Shown here in pieces: positions 1 to 8,790 of a DNA stretch of 8,790 nucleotides. Each line of letters starts with the position of its first letter. Position 1 is the stretch's first letter. Below the pieces are notes generated by a model. The model was not told the origin of the DNA. It was given only the letters and a program-made list of their open reading frames with translations, and did not search any database. Origin of the DNA: a virus (Duplodnaviria > Heunggongvirae > Uroviricota > Caudoviricetes); IMG/VR virus record IMGVR_UViG_2703718806_000011, positions 1 through 8,790 of that record; one strand, 5' to 3'. The position numbers and the translations under genes were made by a program.

Positions 1-114
1 AACACGCGCATAATTTTCGGCTGTCATGCTGTCCGGCTGCGTGGCCTGTTCGTCAGCCTGCTGGCTGATTCCGGCGACGCGGCGGATTAATCCCAGTATT
101 TCGGCTTCTGTCAT
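1..114 (-). CDS. Hypothetical protein, N-terminal 38 codons only (MTEAEILGLIRRVAGISQQADEQATQPDSMTAENYARV...); runs off the window start
   Basis: ATG at 114-112 with a G-rich stretch (GGGGG) 5 nt upstream; open frame to position 1. Too short in-window to appear in the ORF track. Sits downstream of the capsid gene, so possibly another head-module gene (inference). Confidence 0.35.
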   Translation of the reverse strand, partial: MTEAEILGLIRRVAGISQQADEQATQPDSMTAENYARV

Positions 115-255
115 TGTGCCCCCATCGCGCTGGTGAAGAAAACAAGCTCAGATTTTTTGTAAAGAATCTGTCACGCTAAAAGATGTCGAACAAAAATTAA
201 CCACAATCATCATCTTTTTTGCATCAACAACATTAAAAACAACAGGTTACACACA

Positions 256-350
256 TGATGATGATGACGATAAAATCACAAAAATGCGCTTTTTTCCGCG
301 CCGCCCGCCCCGTGTTCAGGCCCACCCCACCAGGAGGACCCGCAAAAAAG
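256..350. repeat. Copy 1 of a ~95-bp direct repeat (core 281-350, about 93% identical to 2818-2888), with a (GAT)n-like trinucleotide stretch at one end
   Basis: Aligned by eye against 2793-2888. Shared core AAAATGCGCyTTTTTCCGCGCC...GCCCCGTGTTCAGGCCC(A/C)CCCCACCAGGAGGACCCGCAAAAAAG. Confidence 0.6.
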
Positions 351-365
351 GCGGCTGGTGCCGCC
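341..365 (-). terminator. Rho-independent terminator just after the capsid gene stop
   Basis: GC stem GGCGGC-tggt-GCCGCC (350-365), followed on the minus strand by TTTTTTG (349-343); lies 6 nt beyond the stop at 372. Confidence 0.6.
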
Positions 366-371
366 TTGTTG

Positions 372-2261
372 TCATAGTGAATCGGTACCACCTGATTTGA
401 CCATACCGCGATAATCCAGAGCTGCCACACCTGCATCAATACGGACTTTCCAGGCCACGCCGTCAACGATAAAACCTTCCTGCTGTTCAAGGTAAGGTTC
501 GTCATTACCATCAAGATAAGCCACCTCGATTGTGTCCGTTCCCTGTGCGGAAAGCATGTACCATTGTTTTTCGCTGATATCATCAAGGCGGGGATCGACG
601 ATGATATCAAGTAGCTTGTGATACGGGTTAAAGATCCCGCTGTTTTTATCAGCCCCGAAAGGTGCGGTTGAGTTAATCATCTGCAACGCGCGATCTTCCA
701 GTGCTGCCGGAACTAAAAGGAATTTAGGCGCAATATTCAGCACTTCGCCATTTTTGTCCTTCTGTGTGCGCATCAGGTGACGTGCTGCACTAAGTCCCGG
801 TGTTGTCAGTCCTGCTTCAATCAGGTTGCTGTGTTTTTTGTCAAACAGCGTTATTCCGTCAGAAAGTTTTACGTTGCCTGTAAGCACCAGATTAACCAGA
901 TTTCCCACCGTTCTTGATGCTGCACGGCCCATAGCCATTGGCACCGTTGATAACTGATCAAGGTCATCATTGATTATCGCCTGGCGGGTAATGCTGAAAA
1001 TATTCCCGTAAGTAGCCAGCGCGATGGGTTCACCGCGATCGCTGGTGGTGATGTATTTATATTCTGCCCCTTCCGGCACTTTGTTTAACGTTGAGAAGCC
1101 ATTCATACCAACGCGGCGGGCTTCCCGGAAGTTTGAAAGGGAACCTTTTTTCGTCCACTGGCGGAATGTTTCGCCACTGTGCTCCCAGCCTGCAAGCACT
1201 GATTTTTCAGCGCCACCAGCAAGGATATCGGTAAAATCGCTGCTGCTGTGGGTGAATGCCGCGTTTACTATCTGCGAGCGTGTGCCGTAGCTGCCCGTGC
1301 TTATACCACGATGGGTTAATGATGCCTGTGCCATATCGAAAAGGCTCATCATGGCGTAAGGATTACCGCGTTCGGCCCGTTCGTGACCAAGACGCGCATT
1401 AAGCCCCTGACGCATGGCATCGCCGGTTATATTGCCGTTATCCGTGTACGCGTAGTAAAGATTTGCGGGGGTGGTTTTGTTTGTTGGCGTTGATTCTTTA
1501 CCCATAGCGAGTAAAAGGCGTTCGCGTGCATTCTCAACGCTACATTCTGAATCCGCAAGACAACTTATAGCCAGGTCGTTATATCTTCCGTTGAAGGTGC
1601 CAAACAATTCACGGATTCCGTTAAGTCGTTCCTGTTCGCCACTGCCAGTTTTCTGGCTGATCATGCTTTTAATTTTTTCCGGCATATTTGAAAAATCTCC
1701 GATTCGTTTTGATTCAATTCGGGCCATTGCTGTAATCGCGGGTATAACCTCATCTGCGAAGCCGTTAGCCTTACACTCATTGCCATCCATCCAGGTTTCC
1801 GCCTCCATCATGGAGGTGATCTCCTGTTTGCTCCTGCCCGTTCTTCCGGCATAGGTTTCTGCCATCGTGTCGCCCAGCTTGTCCATCAGATCAGCAAAGC
1901 GGCGAACGTCGCCCGACACTCCGGCAGTAACACCACGGGGGGCATGTATCATCATCATCGCGTTTTCAGGCATAACGATGTGATCTCCACACATGGCAAT
2001 AAACGACGCCATAGAAGCCGCCATGCCTTCAATGTGTACGATTTTTTTTGCCGGATGATTTTTCAGGGCGTTATAGATAGCCAGCCCTTCAAAGATGTCG
2101 CCACCAGGTGAATGAATGCTCAGATGGATTTCAGACGCATTACCACACGCGTTGATCTCGTCAGTAAGTGCCGATGCTTTTACACCGTACCCGCCGATCT
2201 CGTCATAAATGCGCACATAGACAACATCTGCCATAGCCTTAATGGAAAACCATGTTTTCAT
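372..2261 (-). CDS. Prohead serine protease (ClpP family) fused to HK97-fold major capsid protein, 629 aa
   Basis: N-terminal ~170 aa aligns with ClpP around the catalytic residues: IHSPGGD, GMAASMASFIA (compare ClpP GQAASMGAFLL, catalytic Ser) and MMIHAPRG (compare ClpP VMIHQPLGG, catalytic His). The C-terminal ~400 aa has the length and composition of an HK97-family capsid protein. RBS TAGGAG 8 nt upstream of the ATG at 2261. Confidence 0.85.
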   Translation of the reverse strand: MKTWFSIKAMADVVYVRIYDEIGGYGVKASALTDEINACGNASEIHLSIHSPGGDIFEGLAIYNALKNHPAKKIVHIEGMAASMASFIAMCGDHIVMPENAMMMIHAPRGVTAGVSGDVRRFADLMDKLGDTMAETYAGRTGRSKQEITSMMEAETWMDGNECKANGFADEVIPAITAMARIESKRIGDFSNMPEKIKSMISQKTGSGEQERLNGIRELFGTFNGRYNDLAISCLADSECSVENARERLLLAMGKESTPTNKTTPANLYYAYTDNGNITGDAMRQGLNARLGHERAERGNPYAMMSLFDMAQASLTHRGISTGSYGTRSQIVNAAFTHSSSDFTDILAGGAEKSVLAGWEHSGETFRQWTKKGSLSNFREARRVGMNGFSTLNKVPEGAEYKYITTSDRGEPIALATYGNIFSITRQAIINDDLDQLSTVPMAMGRAASRTVGNLVNLVLTGNVKLSDGITLFDKKHSNLIEAGLTTPGLSAARHLMRTQKDKNGEVLNIAPKFLLVPAALEDRALQMINSTAPFGADKNSGIFNPYHKLLDIIVDPRLDDISEKQWYMLSAQGTDTIEVAYLDGNDEPYLEQQEGFIVDGVAWKVRIDAGVAALDYRGMVKSGGTDSL

Positions 2262-2452
2262 AGCCAGGCTCCTAACGTTGCCTGGTACCAGTATTCAACC
2301 GCGCTGCGTGTGATTTGTCCTTTCGTGGGCACTGGCATACCCGGGTGATTATCTTTGATGAACTGCTGATAGCGTTCGATCTTCTCCATAGTTCCGGCGT
2401 CTATGTGCACAGTGGCACTTTTATCCGGCTTTCTGGTGTTGTTCTCTGGCAT
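2258..2452 (-). CDS. Hypothetical small protein, 64 aa from the favoured start at 2452 (ORF track start 2485 gives 75 aa); translationally coupled to the capsid gene
   Basis: GGAGG lies 7 nt upstream of the ATG at 2452, whereas the ATG at 2485 has no Shine-Dalgarno. The stop overlaps the capsid start (ATGA). Predicted strand-helix-helix pattern (ATVHIDAGTMEKIERYQQFI...) suggests a small DNA-binding or assembly factor (inference). Confidence 0.5.
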   Translation of the reverse strand: MPENNTRKPDKSATVHIDAGTMEKIERYQQFIKDNHPGMPVPTKGQITRSAVEYWYQATLGAWL

Positions 2453-2647
2453 AAATCCGCCTCCGTTTTGATTAACGGGCATCATTATTGATCGATAAAA
2501 GTAATAGATAAATCATTTTCTACCTGAAAATCAGATTATGTTTTTTCTGATTATTCTCAGAAAGGCAAAGTTATTGACGCATTTTTGCCATTGAAGCAGT
2601 ATTAAGACTCGTCATCCTGGCGATAAAAACTCCTTTGTCGTGTAAAA

Positions 2648-2683
2648 GCGCCTCCGGTAACAGCAATCGGGGGCGCTTTTTTT
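2648..2683. terminator. Intrinsic terminator, strongest in the plus orientation and probably bidirectional
   Basis: Stem GCGCCTCCG (2648-2656) / CGGGGGCGC (2668-2676) with one G-U pair, followed by TTTTTTT (2677-2683) on the plus strand and preceded by AAAA, which gives UUUU on the minus strand. Confidence 0.5.
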
Positions 2684-2792
2684 GCGCCTGTTTTTTTGTA
2701 AATGCTTTCGGGAACGCTCCAGTGATGAACAAAAAACAACCTGATTCGACACTAAAATTTTTTATTCCTCAATATATCAATAACTTATAGTG

Positions 2793-2888
2793 GTGGTGAT
2801 GGTGCCATAAAAATCAAAAAATGCGCCTTTTTCCGCGCCCCTCCGCCCCGTGTTCAGGCCCCCCCCACCAGGAGGACCCGCAAAAAAG
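2793..2888. repeat. Copy 2 of the ~95-bp direct repeat (pairs with 256-350); carries a C8 tract at 2859-2866
   Basis: Aligned by eye with 256-350. The two copies differ by one indel and a few substitutions, so plus-strand reading frames through them are not conserved, arguing the element is non-coding. Confidence 0.6.
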
Positions 2889-2904
2889 CCGGATTGCTCC
2901 GGCT
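2880..2904 (-). terminator. Rho-independent terminator after the SSB-like gene
   Basis: Stem AGCCGGA-ttgc-TCCGGCT (2887-2904) followed on the minus strand by a T-run (complement of 2881-2886); lies 16 nt beyond the stop at 2920. Confidence 0.6.
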
Positions 2905-2919
2905 TCTGTCACTCGTTGC

Positions 2920-3177
2920 TTAAAACGGTATGTTATCCCCGTACGGATCATCGTTACCCGCCACGCTCACCAGTTCGCCTTTGTGGTGTTTTGCCAGTGC
3001 GTCGGCCTGTCTGCCAAACGCCAGGACGGATAACCACATCGTCGCCGTTCCGTCATCGGCCTGGCTGCACGGCAGGGGGATAGCCATACCCGCCATCGCC
3101 ATTTGTGTACCCTTGCTGGTGGTCTTTAACTGTGGGTCAGCCACCAGCCGCCCGTAAGCGGCTATCTGTGCTGTCAT
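2920..3177 (-). CDS. Truncated SSB-like OB-fold protein, 85 aa, ending in an SSB-type acidic C-terminal tip (...DDPYGDNIPF)
   Basis: The N-terminal part resembles the start of E. coli SSB (IAAYGRLVADPQLK vs VILVGNLGQDPEVR; WLSVLAFGRQADALAKHHKGELVSV vs [26 protein letters not shown]), and the last residues DNIPF match the SSB tip DDDIPF. Start overlaps the upstream gene stop (ATGA). Confidence 0.6.
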   Translation of the reverse strand: MTAQIAAYGRLVADPQLKTTSKGTQMAMAGMAIPLPCSQADDGTATMWLSVLAFGRQADALAKHHKGELVSVAGNDDPYGDNIPF

Positions 3178-3443
3178 GATTCCACCTCTCCGGTTTTAAT
3201 GTTGATGGTTGTTACCTGTTCCGCTTCGGCAATCTCCCGTTCTGTCAGCGTGGCAAAGTTTGCCGCCGCTGTGGTCATGAATGCGCTTATCAGTTCGGGA
3301 TGTTCCTTCGCGTATCCTTCCCCCGCGTGGCGGTCTATTACCCTGATTGCTACCTTTAAGGCGTGCTCTGTCATGTCTAACGCTTTATATTTTGGCTCTG
3401 TTCTGTCTCTGCGCATTTTGGTTATCTCCTCACTCATGCTCAC
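3174..3443 (-). CDS. Hypothetical protein, 89 aa (GTG start at 3443; alternative ATG at 3437)
   Basis: Plausible composition; GAGG lies 7 nt upstream of the GTG, inside an ori iteron; coupled to the downstream SSB-like gene by a 4-nt overlap. Confidence 0.5.
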   Translation of the reverse strand: MSMSEEITKMRRDRTEPKYKALDMTEHALKVAIRVIDRHAGEGYAKEHPELISAFMTTAAANFATLTEREIAEAEQVTTINIKTGEVES

Positions 3444-3630
3444 TTTTGCGCCTCACTTTTTAAAGCGTCTCGCTTCGTCTCACTTGATATTTTTGATGTT
3501 TTTATGTGCATGTTTCATAAGGATTTTTTACTCCTCACTTTTTGGGGTATATATACGTTGAAAAGTGAGGAGTTCAGGGGGTTTTTCGTGCAATTCCTCA
3601 TTGTCCTCACTTTTGCGCCTCACTTTTTAC
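3429..3630. repeat. Putative origin of replication: iterons of consensus CCTCACTTTT around an AT-rich core
   Basis: The 23-bp unit CTCACTTTTGCGCCTCACTTTTT occurs at 3439-3461 and 3606-3628. A perfect 12-bp inverted repeat CTCCTCACTTTT (3531-3542) / AAAAGTGAGGAG (3561-3572) flanks a TATATATA spacer. Partial copies at 3429-3435, 3477-3486 and 3596-3603. AT-rich stretch 3481-3530. Lies immediately 3' of the replication gene. Confidence 0.55.
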
Positions 3631-5036
3631 AGAGGGCCTACATCATCACCGTCGATATAAATAACCCCGTCTTTTTCCAGCTTGCGTAGCCAGCGGCTGA
3701 AGTTTTTCATTTCGTACCCCAGCTTTTTCATATCGTCACGTAACAGCGGGATCGTGCACTTGTCGCCGTGCTGTGTGCGTGACCGGATACATCCCCATAG
3801 CGCAGCATGATTCTCCGTCTTGTTGCCAGCCTCTTCGATGCGCTCCAGTTCAACGGGAGGACGCGGCTTATCCACCACCACCAGCGACGTGATTAACTCC
3901 CCGTCAGCGTCGGTAAAAAGCTCCACCACCCGCAAATCATAGGCAGCCTCTTTGAGTTCCTCCGCGTCCTTCATTTTGGTGCATGAGATAACCAGCGCTT
4001 CGCTTCCTGCGTCCTCCCTGCGTATCCGGTATTCAGCGTCCAGTGATGCACGAAATGCACTGGAACCACGCGCCCCCTTTGTTTCATCCTTGCCGGAATG
4101 GTGAACCACCAGCACCGTAGCCCCTGTGCGCCGTTTAAGCTCGTCACAACCACGGATAAATGCCCCCATGTCGCGGGAGTCATTTTCATCATTGCCGCCA
4201 AAGCAACGCGCCAGCGTGTCCAGAATAATCATGCGAACAGGTTTACCCGTTTCCCTCTCCACCTGACTGGCAGCAATAACCAGTTCATCAACATCAAGCG
4301 GGACAGCCGGAAAGATGGGACGGTTTACCAGATACAGATTTTTCACCTGCTCACCGTGCACAACCTCCCAGGCTTTTACACGACGCGGAACGCCGATACC
4401 GCCTTCACCAACCACATAGAGAACAGCGCCATGCGCCACCCTGCGGCCTCCCCACTGGCGGCCCGTGGAAACGTGACACGCCCACGATCCGGCAAGGAAT
4501 GATTTATAGGAACCGCTCGCCCCGTATATGCTGCAAAGCGACGATGCCGGAATAATCCCCTTTACCACGTAATCAAGCTGTGTGTCGTATCCGGTAGATC
4601 CAACGCTCATCGGTAGCTTGGTTTTTCGCTGGGGGATTTTTTTCATGACCAGGCTTTCCCCGCGTTCCCATGCCTCCCTAAGCCGTGGAAGCTGGTCGCT
4701 CCATTCCTCCAGCAATTCGAAATTTTCAGAAAGTAGCCGCGCCTCCTGGACTCCGGCGATCGCCAGTTTCGTGGCGATGGTTAACAGCTGCGGCTCTTCA
4801 ATATTTCCGGCGCGTATCACCGTCGCCCTGTATCGCCCATCATCAACAATCTGGAGGTTATCCAGTTCGCTTAACTGATAACGCCCCAGATAAACGGGAG
4901 GGACTGGATCGCCTGCTTTTTTGGCCTGTGCAATGATGTAATGCTCTGCGAATGAGTGAGCATCAATACCCGCAAAAATAATCGCATCGGTGTATTTATC
5001 TTTCGGTAATCGTTTTACGTTCGGTGCCAGTTTCAT
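3627..5036 (-). CDS. Replication protein with a RepA/DnaB-like (RecA-fold) ATPase domain, 469 aa; primase/helicase-type satellite replication initiator
   Basis: P-loop-like IYGASGSYKSF, Walker B-like RMIILD, and HHSGKD, as in RepA-like helicase domains (from memory, unverified). AGGGG lies 6 nt upstream of the ATG at 5036. Start overlaps the upstream gene stop (ATGA). Confidence 0.8.
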   Translation of the reverse strand: MKLAPNVKRLPKDKYTDAIIFAGIDAHSFAEHYIIAQAKKAGDPVPPVYLGRYQLSELDNLQIVDDGRYRATVIRAGNIEEPQLLTIATKLAIAGVQEARLLSENFELLEEWSDQLPRLREAWERGESLVMKKIPQRKTKLPMSVGSTGYDTQLDYVVKGIIPASSLCSIYGASGSYKSFLAGSWACHVSTGRQWGGRRVAHGAVLYVVGEGGIGVPRRVKAWEVVHGEQVKNLYLVNRPIFPAVPLDVDELVIAASQVERETGKPVRMIILDTLARCFGGNDENDSRDMGAFIRGCDELKRRTGATVLVVHHSGKDETKGARGSSAFRASLDAEYRIRREDAGSEALVISCTKMKDAEELKEAAYDLRVVELFTDADGELITSLVVVDKPRPPVELERIEEAGNKTENHAALWGCIRSRTQHGDKCTIPLLRDDMKKLGYEMKNFSRWLRKLEKDGVIYIDGDDVGPL

Positions 5037-5332
5037 TTTTTACCCCTGAATCCGTTAATCATGGTTTTCAGCTTCTGGATGTTTGCCCGTGCCCTGGCGT
5101 TGCTGGTGGGCACGTTATGCGGCGCGGTCTGTACCAGAGAAAAATCACGCCGGAACTGATAAACAGGCATCACGCAATCATATTCGTAACCTTCACGGCG
5201 GTAAGTTACGCACCGTCCCGCCACGCCCTTAATCATTACCGTGCCGCCGTACTGGTCGCGGTAAATATCACCGCGCGTAAATTTAGGGTGAGTGTTGCCA
5301 CTGGCAGTTAAGCCAGAATATTTAAGTTTCAT
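5033..5332 (-). CDS. Hypothetical protein, 99 aa; resembles small conserved proteins found beside replication genes in P4-like prophages
   Basis: ORF-track protein with GDIYRDQYGGTVMIKGVAGRCVTYRREGYEYDCV, probably beta-rich. GGAG upstream of the ATG at 5332. Last gene of the small-gene operon before rep. Confidence 0.6.
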   Translation of the reverse strand: MKLKYSGLTASGNTHPKFTRGDIYRDQYGGTVMIKGVAGRCVTYRREGYEYDCVMPVYQFRRDFSLVQTAPHNVPTSNARARANIQKLKTMINGFRGKK

Positions 5333-5337
5333 TATTT

Positions 5338-5571
5338 TTATTCTCCGGTGTGCTGTTCGTTATATCTGTCGTGCAATTGGTCTATTTCTTGTAGTTCCAT
5401 TATTACAGGCTCAAGAAGCGTTATTAATGCCGTGACAATTCTTGATTTTTGTTTGTCGCGTTCATTGTCGCCAAGTGTTTCAAGCCATATGCGCAATATT
5501 TCCAGCATGTTTTCACTGTGAGAAAGTGCAATAAATGCGCGGTCTATTGTTTCAAGGTAAATATCACGCAT
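5338..5571 (-). CDS. Hypothetical small protein, 77 aa, predicted helical
   Basis: AGGGGG then TAAT before the ATG at 5571; the upstream gene stop TAA is 1 nt before the start. Confidence 0.6.
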   Translation of the reverse strand: MRDIYLETIDRAFIALSHSENMLEILRIWLETLGDNERDKQKSRIVTALITLLEPVIMELQEIDQLHDRYNEQHTGE

Positions 5572-5572
5572 A

Positions 5573-5794
5573 TTACCCCCTGCCAGACATTTTTCTTAAA
5601 TCAGATTCAGCAATATATTCCGCATAATCGGCAGTAATATTCAGTACGTCTATTCCAGTTGATTTATATTCTTTCGTGCCAAGTAAGAAAAATGCCGCTC
5701 TTATCAGTTCGGATATTGACGAAAGCGCATCACCTGCATCATCAGGCGCACCATCAAATTCCTTTTTCAGGGAATTAAAACGATCATCACGCAT
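5573..5794 (-). CDS. Hypothetical small acidic protein, 73 aa from the favoured start at 5794 (ORF track start 5842 gives 89 aa)
   Basis: The internal ATG at 5794 is preceded by the G8 tract that also encodes the C-terminal glycines of the upstream gene, and overlaps that gene's stop (ATGCGTGA). The longer N-terminal extension is hydrophobic and has no Shine-Dalgarno. Confidence 0.5.
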   Translation of the reverse strand: MRDDRFNSLKKEFDGAPDDAGDALSSISELIRAAFFLLGTKEYKSTGIDVLNITADYAEYIAESDLRKMSGRG

Positions 5795-6008
5795 AACCCC
5801 CCCCATTTTCACAATCAGCAACAAGAATATTTTTAGCGTCATTCAGCGACCGCGTGGCGGTGTATCGGATACATTCCAGGGCGAACGATGTGTATTCTTC
5901 CCGTTCTTCCTTTCGTGCAAGCTCTGCTGTGCATTCAATATCAATAAGCGCGTGCATCAGCGTAGTGAGTGCGGCGGCGGCTGCGTCCGGTGTGGTTTTA
6001 TTGCACAT
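5787..6008 (-). CDS. Hypothetical small acidic protein, 73 aa from the favoured start at 6008 (ORF track start 6062 gives 91 aa)
   Basis: GGAGGGG lies about 4 nt upstream of the ATG at 6008; the ATG at 6062 has no Shine-Dalgarno. C-terminus ...ENGGGYA. Confidence 0.5.
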   Translation of the reverse strand: MCNKTTPDAAAAALTTLMHALIDIECTAELARKEEREEYTSFALECIRYTATRSLNDAKNILVADCENGGGYA

Positions 6009-6228
6009 GTACCCCTCCGCATTTTTTTTCGTTAGAAATAAGCGTTCTTCTTTCCTGTTCATCGCTCAGGAATACGCAGACCTCACCGCTAAGGCGTTTA
6101 AGTAAGCCGATGATTGCCCCTGATTCGCTGTCGGTCATCATGCCAGGGTAATCCTCTGCCAGTGCGCAAATAACTTCGATTTGGTGGGCGCGTTCTGCTG
6201 CCTGTTGTAGTGTGATTTCCTGGCTCAT
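5998..6228 (-). CDS. Hypothetical small protein, 76 aa from the favoured start at 6228 (ORF track start 6285 gives 95 aa)
   Basis: AGGAGG lies 8 nt upstream of the ATG at 6228, which overlaps the upstream gene stop (ATGA). The longer form would begin inside the upstream gene with a Cys-rich, implausible N-terminus. Confidence 0.55.
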   Translation of the reverse strand: MSQEITLQQAAERAHQIEVICALAEDYPGMMTDSESGAIIGLLKRLSGEVCVFLSDEQERRTLISNEKKCGGVHVQ

Positions 6229-6419
6229 AAGCCTACCTCCTGACGAATACGGGCGGCAAATACAGCAACACAACCGGACGGGCAACGGCTACGCGCTTCG
6301 CGTTCCGTCCAGGCGGTTACGTGGATGATTTGAGATTCTCCGGCACTCAGTGCCAGAAAACGCCACATAAAGGCAGTTTGTGTGTGTACAAGGTGTGGTA
6401 TATGATTTACGGCAACCAT
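6225..6419 (-). CDS. Small protein, 64 aa, first gene of the early operon; possibly Icd-like (host cell-division inhibitor family common in P4-like prophages)
   Basis: Strong RBS GAGGAG 6 nt upstream of the ATG at 6419. The Icd-like assignment is from memory of the family pattern (aromatic-R-F-L-A-L core) and is unverified. Confidence 0.55.
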   Translation of the reverse strand: MVAVNHIPHLVHTQTAFMWRFLALSAGESQIIHVTAWTEREARSRCPSGCVAVFAARIRQEVGL

Positions 6420-6450
6420 AACGGCTCCTCGTTTACGTTGTTGGTTAGAA

Positions 6451-6491
6451 GCCCTGCGAGTGGTAACGACACTTGCGGGGCTTTGCTTTTT
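6451..6491 (+). terminator. Terminator-like hairpin plus U-tract on the plus strand; role unclear
   Basis: GCCCTGCGAGTG (6451-6462), loop GTAACGA, CACTTGCGGGGC (6470-6481), then TTTGCTTTTT. Two G-U pairs are allowed only in the plus-strand RNA; in the minus-strand RNA they become C-A mismatches. Confidence 0.3.
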
Positions 6492-6508
6492 ACTGTACCT
6501 ACTGATAT

Positions 6509-6552
6509 TGTACGTACGTAACGGAAATGATAATAGGAGTTACGTACGTACA
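6509..6552. promoter_or_regulatory. Palindromic operator: perfect 14-bp inverted repeat TGTACGTACGTAAC / GTTACGTACGTACA, arms separated by 16 bp
   Basis: Arms at 6509-6522 and 6539-6552. Each arm contains the self-complementary 10-mer TACGTACGTA, with copies 30 bp centre to centre. Overlaps both the early promoter and the RHH translation start. Confidence 0.6.
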
Positions 6553-6558
6553 TGTCAA
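6530..6558 (-). promoter_or_regulatory. Near-consensus sigma70 promoter for the minus-strand early operon
   Basis: On the minus strand: -35 TTGACA (6558-6553), 17-bp spacer, -10 TATTAT (6535-6530). Predicted transcription start near 6523, about 100 nt upstream of the first operon gene at 6419. Confidence 0.55.
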
Positions 6559-6743
6559 CATTAAAGCGCGATAAATCGCCACGCGGTGAGGGATGGTCTC
6601 CAACCTTCCAAATCAGAATCAGTAAAGAGCTACGCCAACAAGTAAATGAAGCTGCAACTTCTGACGGTCTAACCCTTGGTAACTGGTTTAAAGAATTAGC
6701 CAGGGCAGAACTAAAGCGGCGCGGCATAGAACCCAAAGGGTAA
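6552..6743 (+). CDS. Ribbon-helix-helix (Arc/CopG-like) DNA-binding protein, 63 aa; candidate repressor of the early operon
   Basis: Strand-helix-helix pattern FQIRISKELRQQVNEAATSDGLTLGNWFKELARAEL. The only convincing plus-strand gene, divergent from the early operon. AGGAG lies 12 nt upstream of the ATG, which sits inside the operator and the spacer of the opposing promoter. Confidence 0.6.
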   Translation: MSTLKRDKSPRGEGWSPTFQIRISKELRQQVNEAATSDGLTLGNWFKELARAELKRRGIEPKG

Positions 6744-6834
6744 TTACATTGCCCACCAGCCTGATAGCGGCTATCATTCCCGTGCTTATGTTTGGGATCA
6801 CATACACATAAGGCGCAGCAGGTTAATTGTTCAG

Positions 6835-6867
6835 AAAGGCGGCTCCATATCGGGGCCGCTTTTTTTA
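6835..6867 (+). terminator. Rho-independent terminator downstream of the RHH gene; may also stop convergent alpA transcription
   Basis: AGGCGGC ... GCCGC stem followed by TTTTTTT (6861-6867). Confidence 0.5.
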
Positions 6868-7007
6868 TGCCTGAAAAACCCCAATTTTGTTGTTTTTCAG
6901 TTTCACCAGGGCGAACGAATCCCCGCCCACGTTCGGGCGCATATTCAATCTTCATGGTTATATCTCTGTATTAGTGGATGTGTGGCGACTGTGTGCCGCC
7001 AGTCTTT

Positions 7008-7196
7008 TTAGTGAACTGCCTTGCAGCTATCCTTCCAGGCCAAAACCTCAGATAAAGACCAGCCAACAGAACGCCCGCCAAGTTTACGACGTGATGGGAA
7101 TTGTCCGGCCTTTTCCAGGCGGTAGCGGCATGAGCGGCTAAGGCCTGTTAGCTTTTCGCATTCTTTTTCACGTATAAACCGATCAGTGCTTAACAC
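7008..7196 (-). CDS. alpA: AlpA-family (excisionase-like, MerR-type) phage transcriptional regulator, 62 aa, GTG start
   Basis: ...EKLTGLSRSCRYRLEKAGQFPSRRKLGGRSVGWSLSEVLAWK matches the AlpA helix-turn-helix pattern. AAGGGGG lies about 4 nt upstream of the GTG at 7196. Confidence 0.8.
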   Translation of the reverse strand: MLSTDRFIREKECEKLTGLSRSCRYRLEKAGQFPSRRKLGGRSVGWSLSEVLAWKDSCKAVH

Positions 7197-7247
7197 TATT
7201 GCCCCCTTTCGTTTCTTAAAGAGTCATCAGGTGTCTTATTGTGTCGT

Positions 7248-7276
7248 ATTGTTCCCGCTAGTGTGGTGAATGGCAA
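7248..7276 (-). promoter_or_regulatory. Candidate sigma70 promoter for alpA
   Basis: On the minus strand: -35 TTGCCA (7276-7271), 17-bp spacer, -10 AACAAT (7253-7248). TATTGT-containing direct repeats at 7231-7255 overlap the -10 and start region. Confidence 0.3.
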
Positions 7277-7345
7277 ATGTTGATGTCGTATGGTTTACAG
7301 AAAGAGGAATAATCAGGATAAAATCATTTAAATTCATGTTAATAC

Positions 7346-7378
7346 AAAGGCATAAAATCTTGTTTTATGCCTTTTTTC
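7346..7378. terminator. Hairpin terminator between int and alpA, probably bidirectional
   Basis: GGCATAAAA-tcttg-TTTTATGCC (7349-7371), followed by TTTTTT on the plus strand and by TTTGTATT on the minus strand. Confidence 0.45.
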
Positions 7379-7468
7379 GCACGCTTTAACGCGTAATTCG
7401 CTAATGTATAAAAAACCAGTTAACCAATAAAAATCAGTAACTTATAAATCTGTATTCTTTTTGGCCTC

Positions 7469-7518
7469 TTGTTCGTGATTGTGTCACGTTGTTGCACATT
7501 GTTTCACGTTGTATCTGT
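7469..7518. repeat. Five direct repeats with exact 10-bp phasing (TTGTnnCACG-like) just 3' of int
   Basis: TTGT at 7469, 7479, 7489, 7499 and 7509; units TTGTTCGTGA, TTGTGTCACG, TTGTTGCACA, TTGTTTCACG, TTGTATCTGT. Confidence 0.4.
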
Positions 7519-7560
7519 GCACTTATCCAGTATGTGCATACTGAAAAAACACGAAAAAAA

Positions 7561-8790
7561 TTATTTTATTCTGGTTACTGGTAGCGTGGTTACGTTTTCA
7601 TGTGCTCCCGCCAGTATCCCTAACCGCTCCGTCCACATATCCAGCGCATCACGTTTCGCATCGAGATAACGGGAGTGGTTATAGACTCGTTGCATCCCTG
7701 GCATCTGATGACCTGTAAGCTGCTCCACGACGTGAGGATCCACGCCCAAATCATTCAGCATCGTTGTAAAGGTGCGCCGGATGTCATGCAATGACCATTG
7801 AGGGTGTTTTAGCCTCCTGTGCGCTAATCTGCCGTACTGCGATACGCTGGCCTCCTGTTTCACTTCCCCCAGTAATAAGCCCGTGTGCCTGTTCTGGTCC
7901 ACCAGCCGCGTGACGAACGGCAGGATCGCTTCCGGTATGGGCCGGAATATTGCAACCTTCGTTTTGCTGTGCTCCTTCGGAACGGTCCATAGCATTTCGG
8001 TAAAATCCCACTCGCTGATCTCCGATAACCTCAGTTCTACCGTCCTGGCTCCGAAGACAATCAGGAGGCGGATTAACGCGACGTAGTAAGGAGAAAATAT
8101 TTTTTTATCCAGCGCCTGCAATAACTCGCCCAGTTCTTTGGTGCTTAAGACACGTTCGCTTATATCCGGTTTTTTCCCAACGTCCGCCACGTTCAGATCG
8201 TCCAGAACGTTGCTGATTGCATAGCGCCGCCTACGGCAGAATTTAAGCGCCTGTTTGCATGTCTGTAGCAAGAATCCGGCAGTAACAGGTGTTCGCTTTG
8301 CCACCTGATCAAAACAGGCCAGCCAGTGCCGTAGCTCGCATTTATCCAGCGGCATAGCACCAATTTTGATGATTATGTTTTTATTGATCCGGCTTTTCAG
8401 TGATTCGTAATCTGTGCGCTTTTCCTTTGCGTACGACTCAAGCCAGTAGGTGAGCGCATCGCCAACCGTTGCAGGCTTTAACGCTTCCTGCATGGTGTAA
8501 TTCAGTTCATAGCGTGGATTTTTCCCCTCAGCCAGCCATGCGCGACACTGTGCGGCTTTTTCCCTGGCTGCTTTCAGGCTCAGATCGGGATAATTTCCCA
8601 GCTTAACGCGTTCAGGTTGTGTCCCTCTTCCCGTTCCGGCCCTGTATGTGAAATACCAGGTTAAAAGGCCGCTGGTTGAATGCCTGACGCTCAGGTTTCC
8701 ACCGTCATTAAGAAAGGCTGTTTTTTGGGCGGGTGTGCCGTTGATTTTCCTTAGCTGTGTGTCACTCAGTTTGTTAAGTGCTCTGCTCAT
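7561..8790 (-). CDS. int: P4-type tyrosine integrase (site-specific recombinase), 409 aa
   Basis: N-terminal arm-binding-type region (LSDTQLRKINGTPAQKTAFLNDGGNLSV...), and C-terminal catalytic motifs HDIRRT (HxxR) and GHQ...VYNHSRY (catalytic Tyr). The ATG is the last three bases of the window (8788-8790). Confidence 0.9.
   Translation of the reverse strand: MSRALNKLSDTQLRKINGTPAQKTAFLNDGGNLSVRHSTSGLLTWYFTYRAGTGRGTQPERVKLGNYPDLSLKAAREKAAQCRAWLAEGKNPRYELNYTMQEALKPATVGDALTYWLESYAKEKRTDYESLKSRINKNIIIKIGAMPLDKCELRHWLACFDQVAKRTPVTAGFLLQTCKQALKFCRRRRYAISNVLDDLNVADVGKKPDISERVLSTKELGELLQALDKKIFSPYYVALIRLLIVFGARTVELRLSEISEWDFTEMLWTVPKEHSKTKVAIFRPIPEAILPFVTRLVDQNRHTGLLLGEVKQEASVSQYGRLAHRRLKHPQWSLHDIRRTFTTMLNDLGVDPHVVEQLTGHQMPGMQRVYNHSRYLDAKRDALDMWTERLGILAGAHENVTTLPVTRIK

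Follow-up and report, generated by a model that had tools for sequence, protein, structure and literature searches.

A probable Gram-negative phage-inducible chromosomal island with a tripartite Gifsy-2-type capsid gene between two candidate lambda-type cos sites

Place of the element among known satellites

The core components of phage-inducible chromosomal islands (PICIs) comprise an integrase, an alpA-type regulator, a primase-replicase, a capsid gene (commoner in Proteobacteria) and a small-terminase homolog; the definition forbids genes for tails, holins, portals and connectors, and elements with four of the five components are termed 'Type B' (de Sousa et al. 2023, PMC10085698). Capsid genes occur in 21 of 29 reference Gram-negative PICIs, and PICIs with a CLP_protease gene have been catalogued (PMC10111431). 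The DNA analysed here, hereafter the window, comprises 8,790 nucleotides (positions 1 to 8,790 of the IMG/VR virus record IMGVR_UViG_2703718806_000011). It very probably represents nearly all of a 9-11 kb Gram-negative PICI of the EcCICFT073 family, of the type using cohesive-end (cos) sites, which is packaged by a helper phage and carries a Gifsy-2-type tripartite capsid gene in its late zone. The element belongs to an already known kind: PICIs with capsid genes, with multiple cos sites and in helper-embedded copies have all been published.

Four of the five core components were found in the window and all five in relatives. The small-terminase homolog was absent from the window lineage, where the first candidate cos site (cos-1) is directly followed by an open reading frame (ORF) of 93 aa. 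No tail, holin, portal or connector family was recovered by the window scans, the size was within the PICI range of about 9-15 kb and the main genes were unidirectional, all main ORFs lying on the minus strand. About twelve related contexts were available for comparison. Six of them (L004-L009) were reached via the identical 629-aa capsid protein, L001 and L002, from two complete E. coli genomes, matched most of the window, L014 and L015 were found through the capsid gene alone, and L016-L019 represent a second capsid clade of 637 aa. The backbone of the element consisted of the following features, in window coordinates:

1-114, minus strand: first 38 codons of the conserved 93-aa backbone ORF (phrog_1561), translation MTEAEILGLIRRVAG..., matching full ORFs in L001, L005 and L014
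2920-3177, minus strand: truncated SSB gene of 85 aa, Pfam SSB over residues 5-75
3427-3632, no strand assigned: putative replication origin, an AT-rich stretch surrounded by six or more CCTCACTT(TT) iterons, which occur in both orientations
3627-5036, minus strand: RepA-family replicative helicase of 469 aa (Pfam AAA_25, E 3e-43; phrog_2850), annotated in relatives as 'helicase RepA family protein'
5033-5332, minus strand: DUF4222 protein, conserved in these satellites as the immediate upstream partner of the replication gene
6225-6419, minus strand: Icd-like small protein (phrog_1743, phrog_29966)
7008-7196, minus strand: AlpA-family regulator/excisionase of 62 aa (Pfam Phage_AlpA, E 5e-18)
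7561-8790, minus strand: tyrosine integrase of 409 aa, with Arm-DNA-bind_3 and Phage_integrase domains

With EcCICFT073 and EcCIIHE3034, the element shared the integrase, AlpA, the Icd-like protein, DUF4222, a replication gene with iterons, SSB, a capsid cassette, cos and the 93-aa ORF, as well as the presence of multiple cos sites and the lack of portal, large terminase and tail genes. The attachment sites of this type (ycfD-phoQ, cspD-clpS and yejM) were also the same (Fillol-Salom et al. 2018, PMC6092414; 2019, PMC6739421). However, these two islands encode a lambda E-like capsid and a D-like decoration protein, whereas the window has a single tripartite gene; they possess a private cosB read by Rpp, whereas cos-1 of the window keeps the cosB of the helper; the window lineage is devoid of Rpp and of a small-terminase homolog; and their helpers are lambda or phi80, whereas those presumed for the window are lambdoid phages with a head module of the Gifsy-2/mEp213 type. 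A lambda E-like capsid of 351 aa is carried by EcCICFT073, EcCI042 and EcCIIHE3034, and one of 307 aa by EcCI11128; the exact capsid cassette of the window was found in none of these four reference PICIs. In these islands the backbone is conserved, and the late zone it carries is an exchangeable cassette.

A first-pass annotation of the window, made from its letters and ORF translations, had proposed a satellite of P4/PICI type. Its PICI component was borne out by the integrase, AlpA, the RepA-type helicase, DUF4222 and the SSB fragment; its P4 component was not, no scanned ORF matching Psu, Sid or Delta in Pfam or PHROGs. The P4-type integrase with its arm-binding domain, AlpA, the Icd-like gene and a phage capsid gene would also suit a P4-like satellite or a decayed prophage remnant. 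Such an origin is nevertheless very improbable: hundreds of assemblies have the same compact arrangement with intact genes, at several attachment sites, tail and lysis genes are missing, and the attachment sites coincide with the ones reported for PICIs of E. coli.

The same annotation had gone further and viewed the element as building its own capsids. Capsid-forming PICIs such as EcCIEDL933 (Alqurainy et al., bioRxiv 10.1101/2022.09.08.507074) display the same integrase/AlpA/replication front half, together with a protease and a major capsid protein, and are defined by added portal, head-tail adaptor/connector, HNH and large terminase genes (PMC10085698). The occurrence in the window of a protease and a major capsid protein, encoded by a gene under purifying selection, could be taken as a sign that this satellite, too, makes capsids of its own, fills them and takes nothing but tails from its helper. 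This is hardly credible, however: in the window scans and in the approximately twelve related contexts, no portal, large terminase, HNH, adaptor, connector, tail or lysis gene belonged to the element, its size is 9-11 kb versus about 15 kb for EcCIEDL933, and it carries and uses the cos of the helper with no terminase of its own.

The region beyond the capsid gene, where further head genes had been expected and the partial ORF at 1-114 was taken for the next of them, was inspected in the relatives. It held only cos, sometimes a DUF1441 homolog, the 93-aa ORF and then host genes. In every context, about 250 bp of non-coding DNA followed the capsid gene and preceded the 93-aa ORF, with a DUF1441 protein of 158-162 aa placed ahead of the latter in some lineages (L004, L008, L009 and L016-L019). 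Host DNA was reached after the 93-aa ORF in L001, L002, L004, L005, L007-L009 and L015-L019 (clpS, phoQ, yejO, and a UDG-family gene in L018). The partial ORF is the N-terminus of this 93-aa satellite backbone protein, which shared 85% identity with its counterpart in the published PICI EcCIIHE3034 and occupies, just after cos, the small-terminase position of the helper phage. It matched no Pfam or NCBIfam family. The possibility that it is a large-terminase remnant or a head gene was considered and rejected, as it had no similarity to the helper large terminase and no family assignment.

The island of strain FUJ80154 (L001) lies between attachment (att) cores ATAACTATCAT; the att core published for the PICI site cspD-clpS (ATGATAGTTAT, PMC6092414 supplement) was present on both of its sides, at 11069 and 20859, delimiting an island of 9.8 kb. 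Repeated ATTAACTACACC motifs were observed near both island ends (11149-11180 and 20707-20735 in L001; 11251-11271 and 22455-22475 in L002) and may be arm-type binding sites of the integrase. The window itself ends at the integrase start codon. Its segment 6748-8790 was 92.6% identical in nucleotides to the island at the ycfD(roxA)-phoQ site of strain 2012C-4431, a site which is also the attachment site of the prototype EcCICFT073 (PMC6092414). Because its integrase segment resembles that island, the window copy is probably chromosomal and not helper-embedded.

The tripartite capsid gene and its satellite lineage

The capsid cassette comprised the following features:

372-2261, minus strand: capsid gene of 629 aa, a single uninterrupted ORF with Pfam, NCBIfam and PHROG matches
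1692-2261, minus strand: ClpP-like prohead protease part (about aa 1-190), from profile and alignment to phage copies
1272-1691, minus strand: helical middle, scaffold-like segment (about aa 191-330), from predicted helices
375-1271, minus strand: major capsid protein part (aa 331-629), from the Pfam profile
342-368, minus strand: terminator-like GC-rich hairpin with T6, directly after the capsid gene stop and abutting cosQ
2258-2485, minus strand: ORF of 75 aa (phrog_4934), overlapping the capsid gene start by 4 nt and specific to the capsid cassette

The Gifsy-2 capsid gene is reportedly a tripartite protease/scaffold/capsid gene. The gene of the window was 49.7% identical to it over 99% of its length and displayed the same protease/scaffold-like/capsid architecture. 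It differs from the Gifsy-2 type, which is phage-encoded, in being satellite-encoded and in lacking a linker of about 30-35 aa found in three aligned phage copies. Pfam assigned residues 41-173 of the 629-aa protein to CLP_protease (E 3e-33) and residues 331-623 to Phage_capsid_4 (E 1e-54). The whole protein scored 887.7 bits against the NCBIfam model NF045540, 'ClpP-like prohead protease/major capsid protein fusion protein', the curated cut-off of which is 475 bits, and 929 bits against phrog_133. These profile searches upheld the in-frame fusion of a protease to a major capsid protein that had been read from the letters, including the match of the C-terminal region to a capsid profile. Residues S83 (AASMAS), H106 (MMIHAP) and D170 (GFADE) were invariant in the alignment of satellite and phage copies and are presumably the catalytic triad, as judged from the established ClpP motifs GxAASMG and MIHQP.

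The Pfam profile suggests an HK97 fold for the capsid domain; a PDB sequence search with the 629-aa protein matched ClpP chains only and no capsid relative. An AlphaFold model based on a nine-sequence alignment had a mean predicted local distance difference test (pLDDT) score of 44.8, and its capsid domain remained below 50 because the alignment was shallow. Only the protease and the helices at 195-255, where pLDDT was about 50-80, were usable. On the basis of these predicted helices, the middle segment could act as an internal scaffold, in line with what had been suggested at first for the region between the two domains. Downstream of the gene, the minus strand at 336-375 folded with -15.1 kcal/mol (z -2.3). 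This hairpin and that preceding the second cos copy, both on the minus strand, were absent from the consensus terminator scan and were folded directly instead.

The distribution of the gene was analysed among 5,426 complete E. coli genomes, 144 of which carried it. The match was full-length in 143 of the 144 carriers and reached at least 95% nucleotide identity in 141, and the listed carriers included the Shiga-toxin-producing serotypes O157:H7, O145:H28, O121 and O111:H8. Blocks of assemblies with the identical 629-aa protein numbered 108. Commoner still, with 520 blocks, was a second satellite clade, the proteins of which have 637-638 aa and 63% identity to the 629-aa protein; it had the same satellite architecture and occupied two sites, one of them cspD-clpS. 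The two clades clustered with each other in a small neighbour-joining tree, apart from the enterobacterial phage copies. Both were devoid of the proline-rich linker of about 30-35 aa located between the protease and the middle segment, which was present in all three aligned phage copies (Stx2d phage, O157 prophage and mEp213; Stx, Shiga toxin), and they had substitutions at the start of the capsid domain in common. Among 50,697 phage records, the highest identity to the satellite protein was at most 52%. Identity to helper-type phage copies was 52-55%, and the protein was equally distant from the copy of the helper and from that of a Pseudomonas phage. The ratio of non-synonymous to synonymous substitution rates (dN/dS) among alleles, estimated pairwise by the Nei-Gojobori method on informative pairs, ranged from 0.08 to 0.23 and was about 0.1 overall; the window and O157 copies, for instance, were separated by 27 synonymous and 10 non-synonymous differences.

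These data clearly point to the maintenance of a working protease-capsid gene, within a satellite-specific lineage, under purifying selection. They have to be confronted with the possibility that the gene is a passenger, i.e. a captured late gene of the helper without a dedicated function in the satellite, which would at most stand in for a helper gene that embedded satellites have disrupted. In favour of this, gene capture has been put forward as a model for the late zones of PICIs (PMC10111431), the zone has a modular make-up (lambda E + D type in EcCIIHE3034, a different 307-aa capsid in EcCI11128), and the capsid gene of EcCICFT073 is dispensable. Against this, the copy is not recent: because the capsid protein is only 52-55% identical to that of the helper while the adjacent cos is about 90% identical, the gene has been kept by the satellites over the long term and was not picked up recently. 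Two deep clades in a satellite-only lineage and a dN/dS of about 0.1 likewise do not fit a passenger, and the helper gene interrupted by the embedded copies L006 and L014 (see below) is the large terminase, not the capsid gene. A passenger or spare copy is on balance somewhat unlikely.

In accession NZ_AP045176.1 (2438758-2439791), the satellite fusion gene was split and its parts annotated separately as 'major capsid protein' and 'Clp protease'. Mageeney et al. describe a CLP_protease site for helper-embedded PICIs, and the split may reflect an insertion there. The 75-aa ORF preceding the capsid gene (VHIDAGTMEKIERY...) looks like a ribbon-helix-helix DNA-binding protein by its sequence, and was 38% identical to a 69-aa ORF ahead of the 637-aa satellite capsid clade. 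It was also compared with the portal and W-like protein of the helper, as a possibly captured piece, and with the 68-aa ORF of EcCIIHE3034, and had no similarity to any of them.

Candidate cos sites and helper prophages

Two lambda-type cos sites (cores at 296-341 and 2833-2879) were overlooked by the first-pass annotation. They are in the same orientation and bracket the 75-aa ORF and the capsid gene:

147-348, core 296-341, minus strand: cos-1, candidate lambda-type cohesive-end site, about 90% identical to the cos of Stx-type phages
335-341, minus strand: cosQ of cos-1, GGGTCCT, aligned to the lambda genome ends
299-310, minus strand: cosN-like sequence of cos-1, GGGCGGGCGGCG, aligned to the lambda genome ends
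about 147-295, minus strand: cosB-like region of cos-1, with motifs TCATCATCATCAT/GATGATGA
2700-2906, core 2833-2879, minus strand: cos-2, second candidate cos copy, in direct repeat with cos-1
about 2881-2906, minus strand: hairpin with T6 ahead of cos-2, fold -17.3 kcal/mol, z -3.1

In Stx1- and Stx2-converting lambdoid phages, the non-coding DNA between the lysis genes and the DUF1441 small terminase was 89-91% identical to window positions 147-348. In phage orientation, and aligned with the joined lambda ends, cos-1 displayed GCGGGTCCT, as well as ACG/GGGCGGGCGGCG opposite lambda ACG/GGGCGGCGACCT; the lambda record starts at its nucleotide 1 with GGGCGGCGACCT as cohesive end, and GGGTCCT is the cosQ heptamer of lambda. 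In the sequence alignment, cosQ, cosN and cosB were arranged in lambda order upstream of the small-terminase position, with about 200 nt from the cosN-like sequence to the next start codon in the window versus 190 nt in lambda. The cos-1 core was identical in the prophages of L003 and L006. Matches to mEp213 and mEp043 adjoined the ends of these records and were considered as evidence on genome termini. They were rejected as such, the mEp213 record beginning at the small-terminase start codon, and show only that cos is located just upstream of the small terminase.

The direct repeat between the two sites (256-367 versus 2794-2905) had 77% identity and a spacing of 2538, and a GC hairpin with a T6 run on the coding strand preceded each of them. 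The cosN of cos-2 was a variant (GGGCGGAGGGGCG) and its cosB was of another type (TTTTATGGCACCATCACCACC). Positions 2719-2886 shared about 90% identity with the L006 prophage cos, which the cos-2 cosB region resembled, whereas the cosB region of cos-1 was like those of the Stx2d phage and the O157:H7 prophage. The DUF1441 small terminases of the two prophage types had an identical C-terminal half but only 56% identity over the N-terminal 70 aa, and the DNA-binding part of lambda-type small terminases is the N-terminal one (PMC6739421). The alignments suggest that both sites function as cos, and that cos-1 and cos-2 probably serve helpers of two small-terminase specificities; cos-2, with its variant cosN, may be a weaker or termination-only site. 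In EcCICFT073, cos1 is essential and cos2 dispensable (PMC6092414). The cosN of the upstream cos copy varied among the satellites L004 and L007-L009. EcCIIHE3034 (L020) had one Stx-type cos core upstream of its capsid cassette and two lambda-type cores GGGCGGCGACCT, one of them inverted (7028-7073(+), 9470-9516(+) and 10362-10409(-) in L020), and mixed cos repertoires seem to be general among such satellites.

In the Stx-type phages sharing cos-1, the small terminase is of the DUF1441 type and the large terminase gpA-like; a W-like protein and a lambda-family portal are also encoded, followed by a protease/scaffold/capsid gene of their own (674 aa, about 54% identical to the satellite copy) and then decoration and tail genes; the head module of mEp213 has the same layout. 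In L006 and L014 (O157:H7 strain ECP17-46), the satellite was inserted in the large-terminase gene of a prophage of precisely this kind: the small terminase and the 5' fragment of the terminase gene preceded the satellite, and the 3' fragment, the portal, the fusion gene and the tails came after it, in that order. The prophages' own fusion genes encoded 659 and 674 aa, the capsid genes of the satellites were identical or near-identical to that of the window, and about 90% identity in cos was shared with the surrounding prophage. A satellite inside a prophage gene corresponds to the helper-embedded arrangement of Mageeney et al. (2023, PMC10111431). The window copy differs from such PICIs in that its integrase resembles that of a chromosomal ycfD-phoQ island. 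A tail module adjoining the element, which had at first been proposed as a sign of an ordinary prophage, is misleading in L006 and L014, where the complete head and tail module beside the element belongs to the surrounding prophage split by the satellite. This embedding is the strongest available evidence for the identity of the helpers, which are presumed from sequence to include Stx-converting lambdoid phages.

It is worth mentioning that L004 and L008 (12154-12642) encode a chimeric DUF1441 small terminase of their own. Its first 85 residues or so are those of the helper, while the C-terminal half is strongly diverged and nearer to the mEp213 type. Such a protein could be a way to bind a helper-type cosB while altering the interaction with the large terminase.

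Proposed life cycle and role of the capsid gene

The anatomy of the element and the studied relative EcCICFT073, which has two cos sites and is packaged by the helper terminase (PMC6092414), suggest the following life cycle. After induction of the helper, the island would excise by means of its integrase and AlpA, and replicate into concatemers from the iteron region 3427-3632 beside the helicase. The concatemers would then be cut and packaged at cos by the helper terminase, and the island would exit in particles using the portal, connectors and tails of the helper. The shared cos and the copies located inside presumed helper prophages lend indirect support to the proposed induction and high-frequency transfer by a helper phage. 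The iteron region is located at the 3' end of the helicase gene, and its layout agrees with the origin organisation described for Gram-negative PICIs (PMC6092414). The SSB gene, of 140 aa in relatives, was truncated in the window by a deletion of about 177 bp (by comparison with L002) and was also a pseudogene in L001; it appears to be dispensable for these satellites. Window positions 6235-6393 aligned to the 'host cell division inhibitor Icd-like protein' of L002. The ORF at 6552-6743(+), the only sizeable plus-strand ORF co-located with an annotated gene in relatives (YlcI/YnfO family), runs divergently from the Icd-like gene; it had a weak Arc/HicB-like match and is probably part of a regulatory switch. 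An Rfam scan of the whole window returned nothing credible, the sole match scoring 23.8 bits versus a gathering score of 114.

The contribution of the capsid gene is the least certain step. Our best guess, possible though short of probable, is that the gene supplies satellite shell subunits which assemble on the helper portal, possibly into shells of altered size. Its conservation in a lineage, the precedent of SaPIbov5 Ccm, and the presence of a protease, a scaffold and a coat within one gene all argue for such a role. Several points weigh against it, or against the overall reading of the element. Neither the transfer of EcCICFT073 nor its interference was altered when its capsid gene was deleted, and the DNA packaged was of phage size (PMC6092414); this dispensability argues against an essential shell-building role. 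No decoration-protein gene was found in the satellite, whereas the helpers encode one right after their capsid gene, and the absence of a small-terminase or Rpp homolog from the lineage leaves unexplained how the helper would be out-competed for packaging. The cos function was deduced from sequence only, and the variant cosN of cos-2 may not be cut. The left flank of the element is outside the window, and its end was placed according to relatives with the identical protein. Finally, no experiment on this satellite/Stx-phage pair, or on a PICI-borne ClpP-capsid fusion, was found in the literature.

A good part of the weight given to satellite shell subunits lies on an altered size or interference, with a satellite homolog co-assembling with the helper capsid or replacing it, so that small shells would form and exclude the helper genome. 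SaPIbov5 (PMC5052747, PMC8569155) provides the precedent: it is also a cos satellite with the cos of its helper and a homolog of the helper major capsid protein, Ccm. Ccm is nevertheless unrelated in sequence and host and has no protease domain, and size redirection has been demonstrated in its case, whereas here it is a hypothesis drawn from sequence. A similar suggestion exists for PmCI172. Small shells would fit one or two satellite genomes, the satellite being about one fifth the size of the helper. The lineage is old and conserved, and the missing proline-rich linker and the shared substitutions at the start of the capsid domain, found in both clades, could be seen in the same light. On the other hand, EcCICFT073, the closest studied relative, travels in full-size heads with no need of its capsid gene, and the structure model was too poor for geometry. 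Size redirection or interference of this kind is therefore considered unlikely. Whatever is covered neither by satellite shell subunits nor by the passenger explanation is left to some other role.

Taken to its full extent, the preferred reading of satellite shell subunits leads to the idea of a one-gene 'shell kit', by which PICIs would assemble procapsids of their own, possibly of smaller size, on a portal stolen from the helper, to be filled by a stolen terminase at a helper-type cos. This is quite unlikely. If true, such a kit would be an intermediate between the strategy of classical PICIs, where everything is stolen, and that of capsid-forming PICIs, where theft is limited to tails, and it would explain why capsid genes are common and conserved among Gram-negative PICIs despite the lack of a laboratory phenotype in EcCICFT073. 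In any case, the single protease/scaffold/coat gene offers a clean system for testing what the capsid genes of Gram-negative PICIs do. The element is otherwise ordinary and annotated in hundreds of genomes; its residual value lies in a long-conserved satellite capsid lineage and in its link to Stx-type helper phages. Because the presumed helpers include Stx-converting lambdoid phages, satellites of this kind could alter the yield of Stx phages, as well as gene transfer, in pathogenic E. coli.

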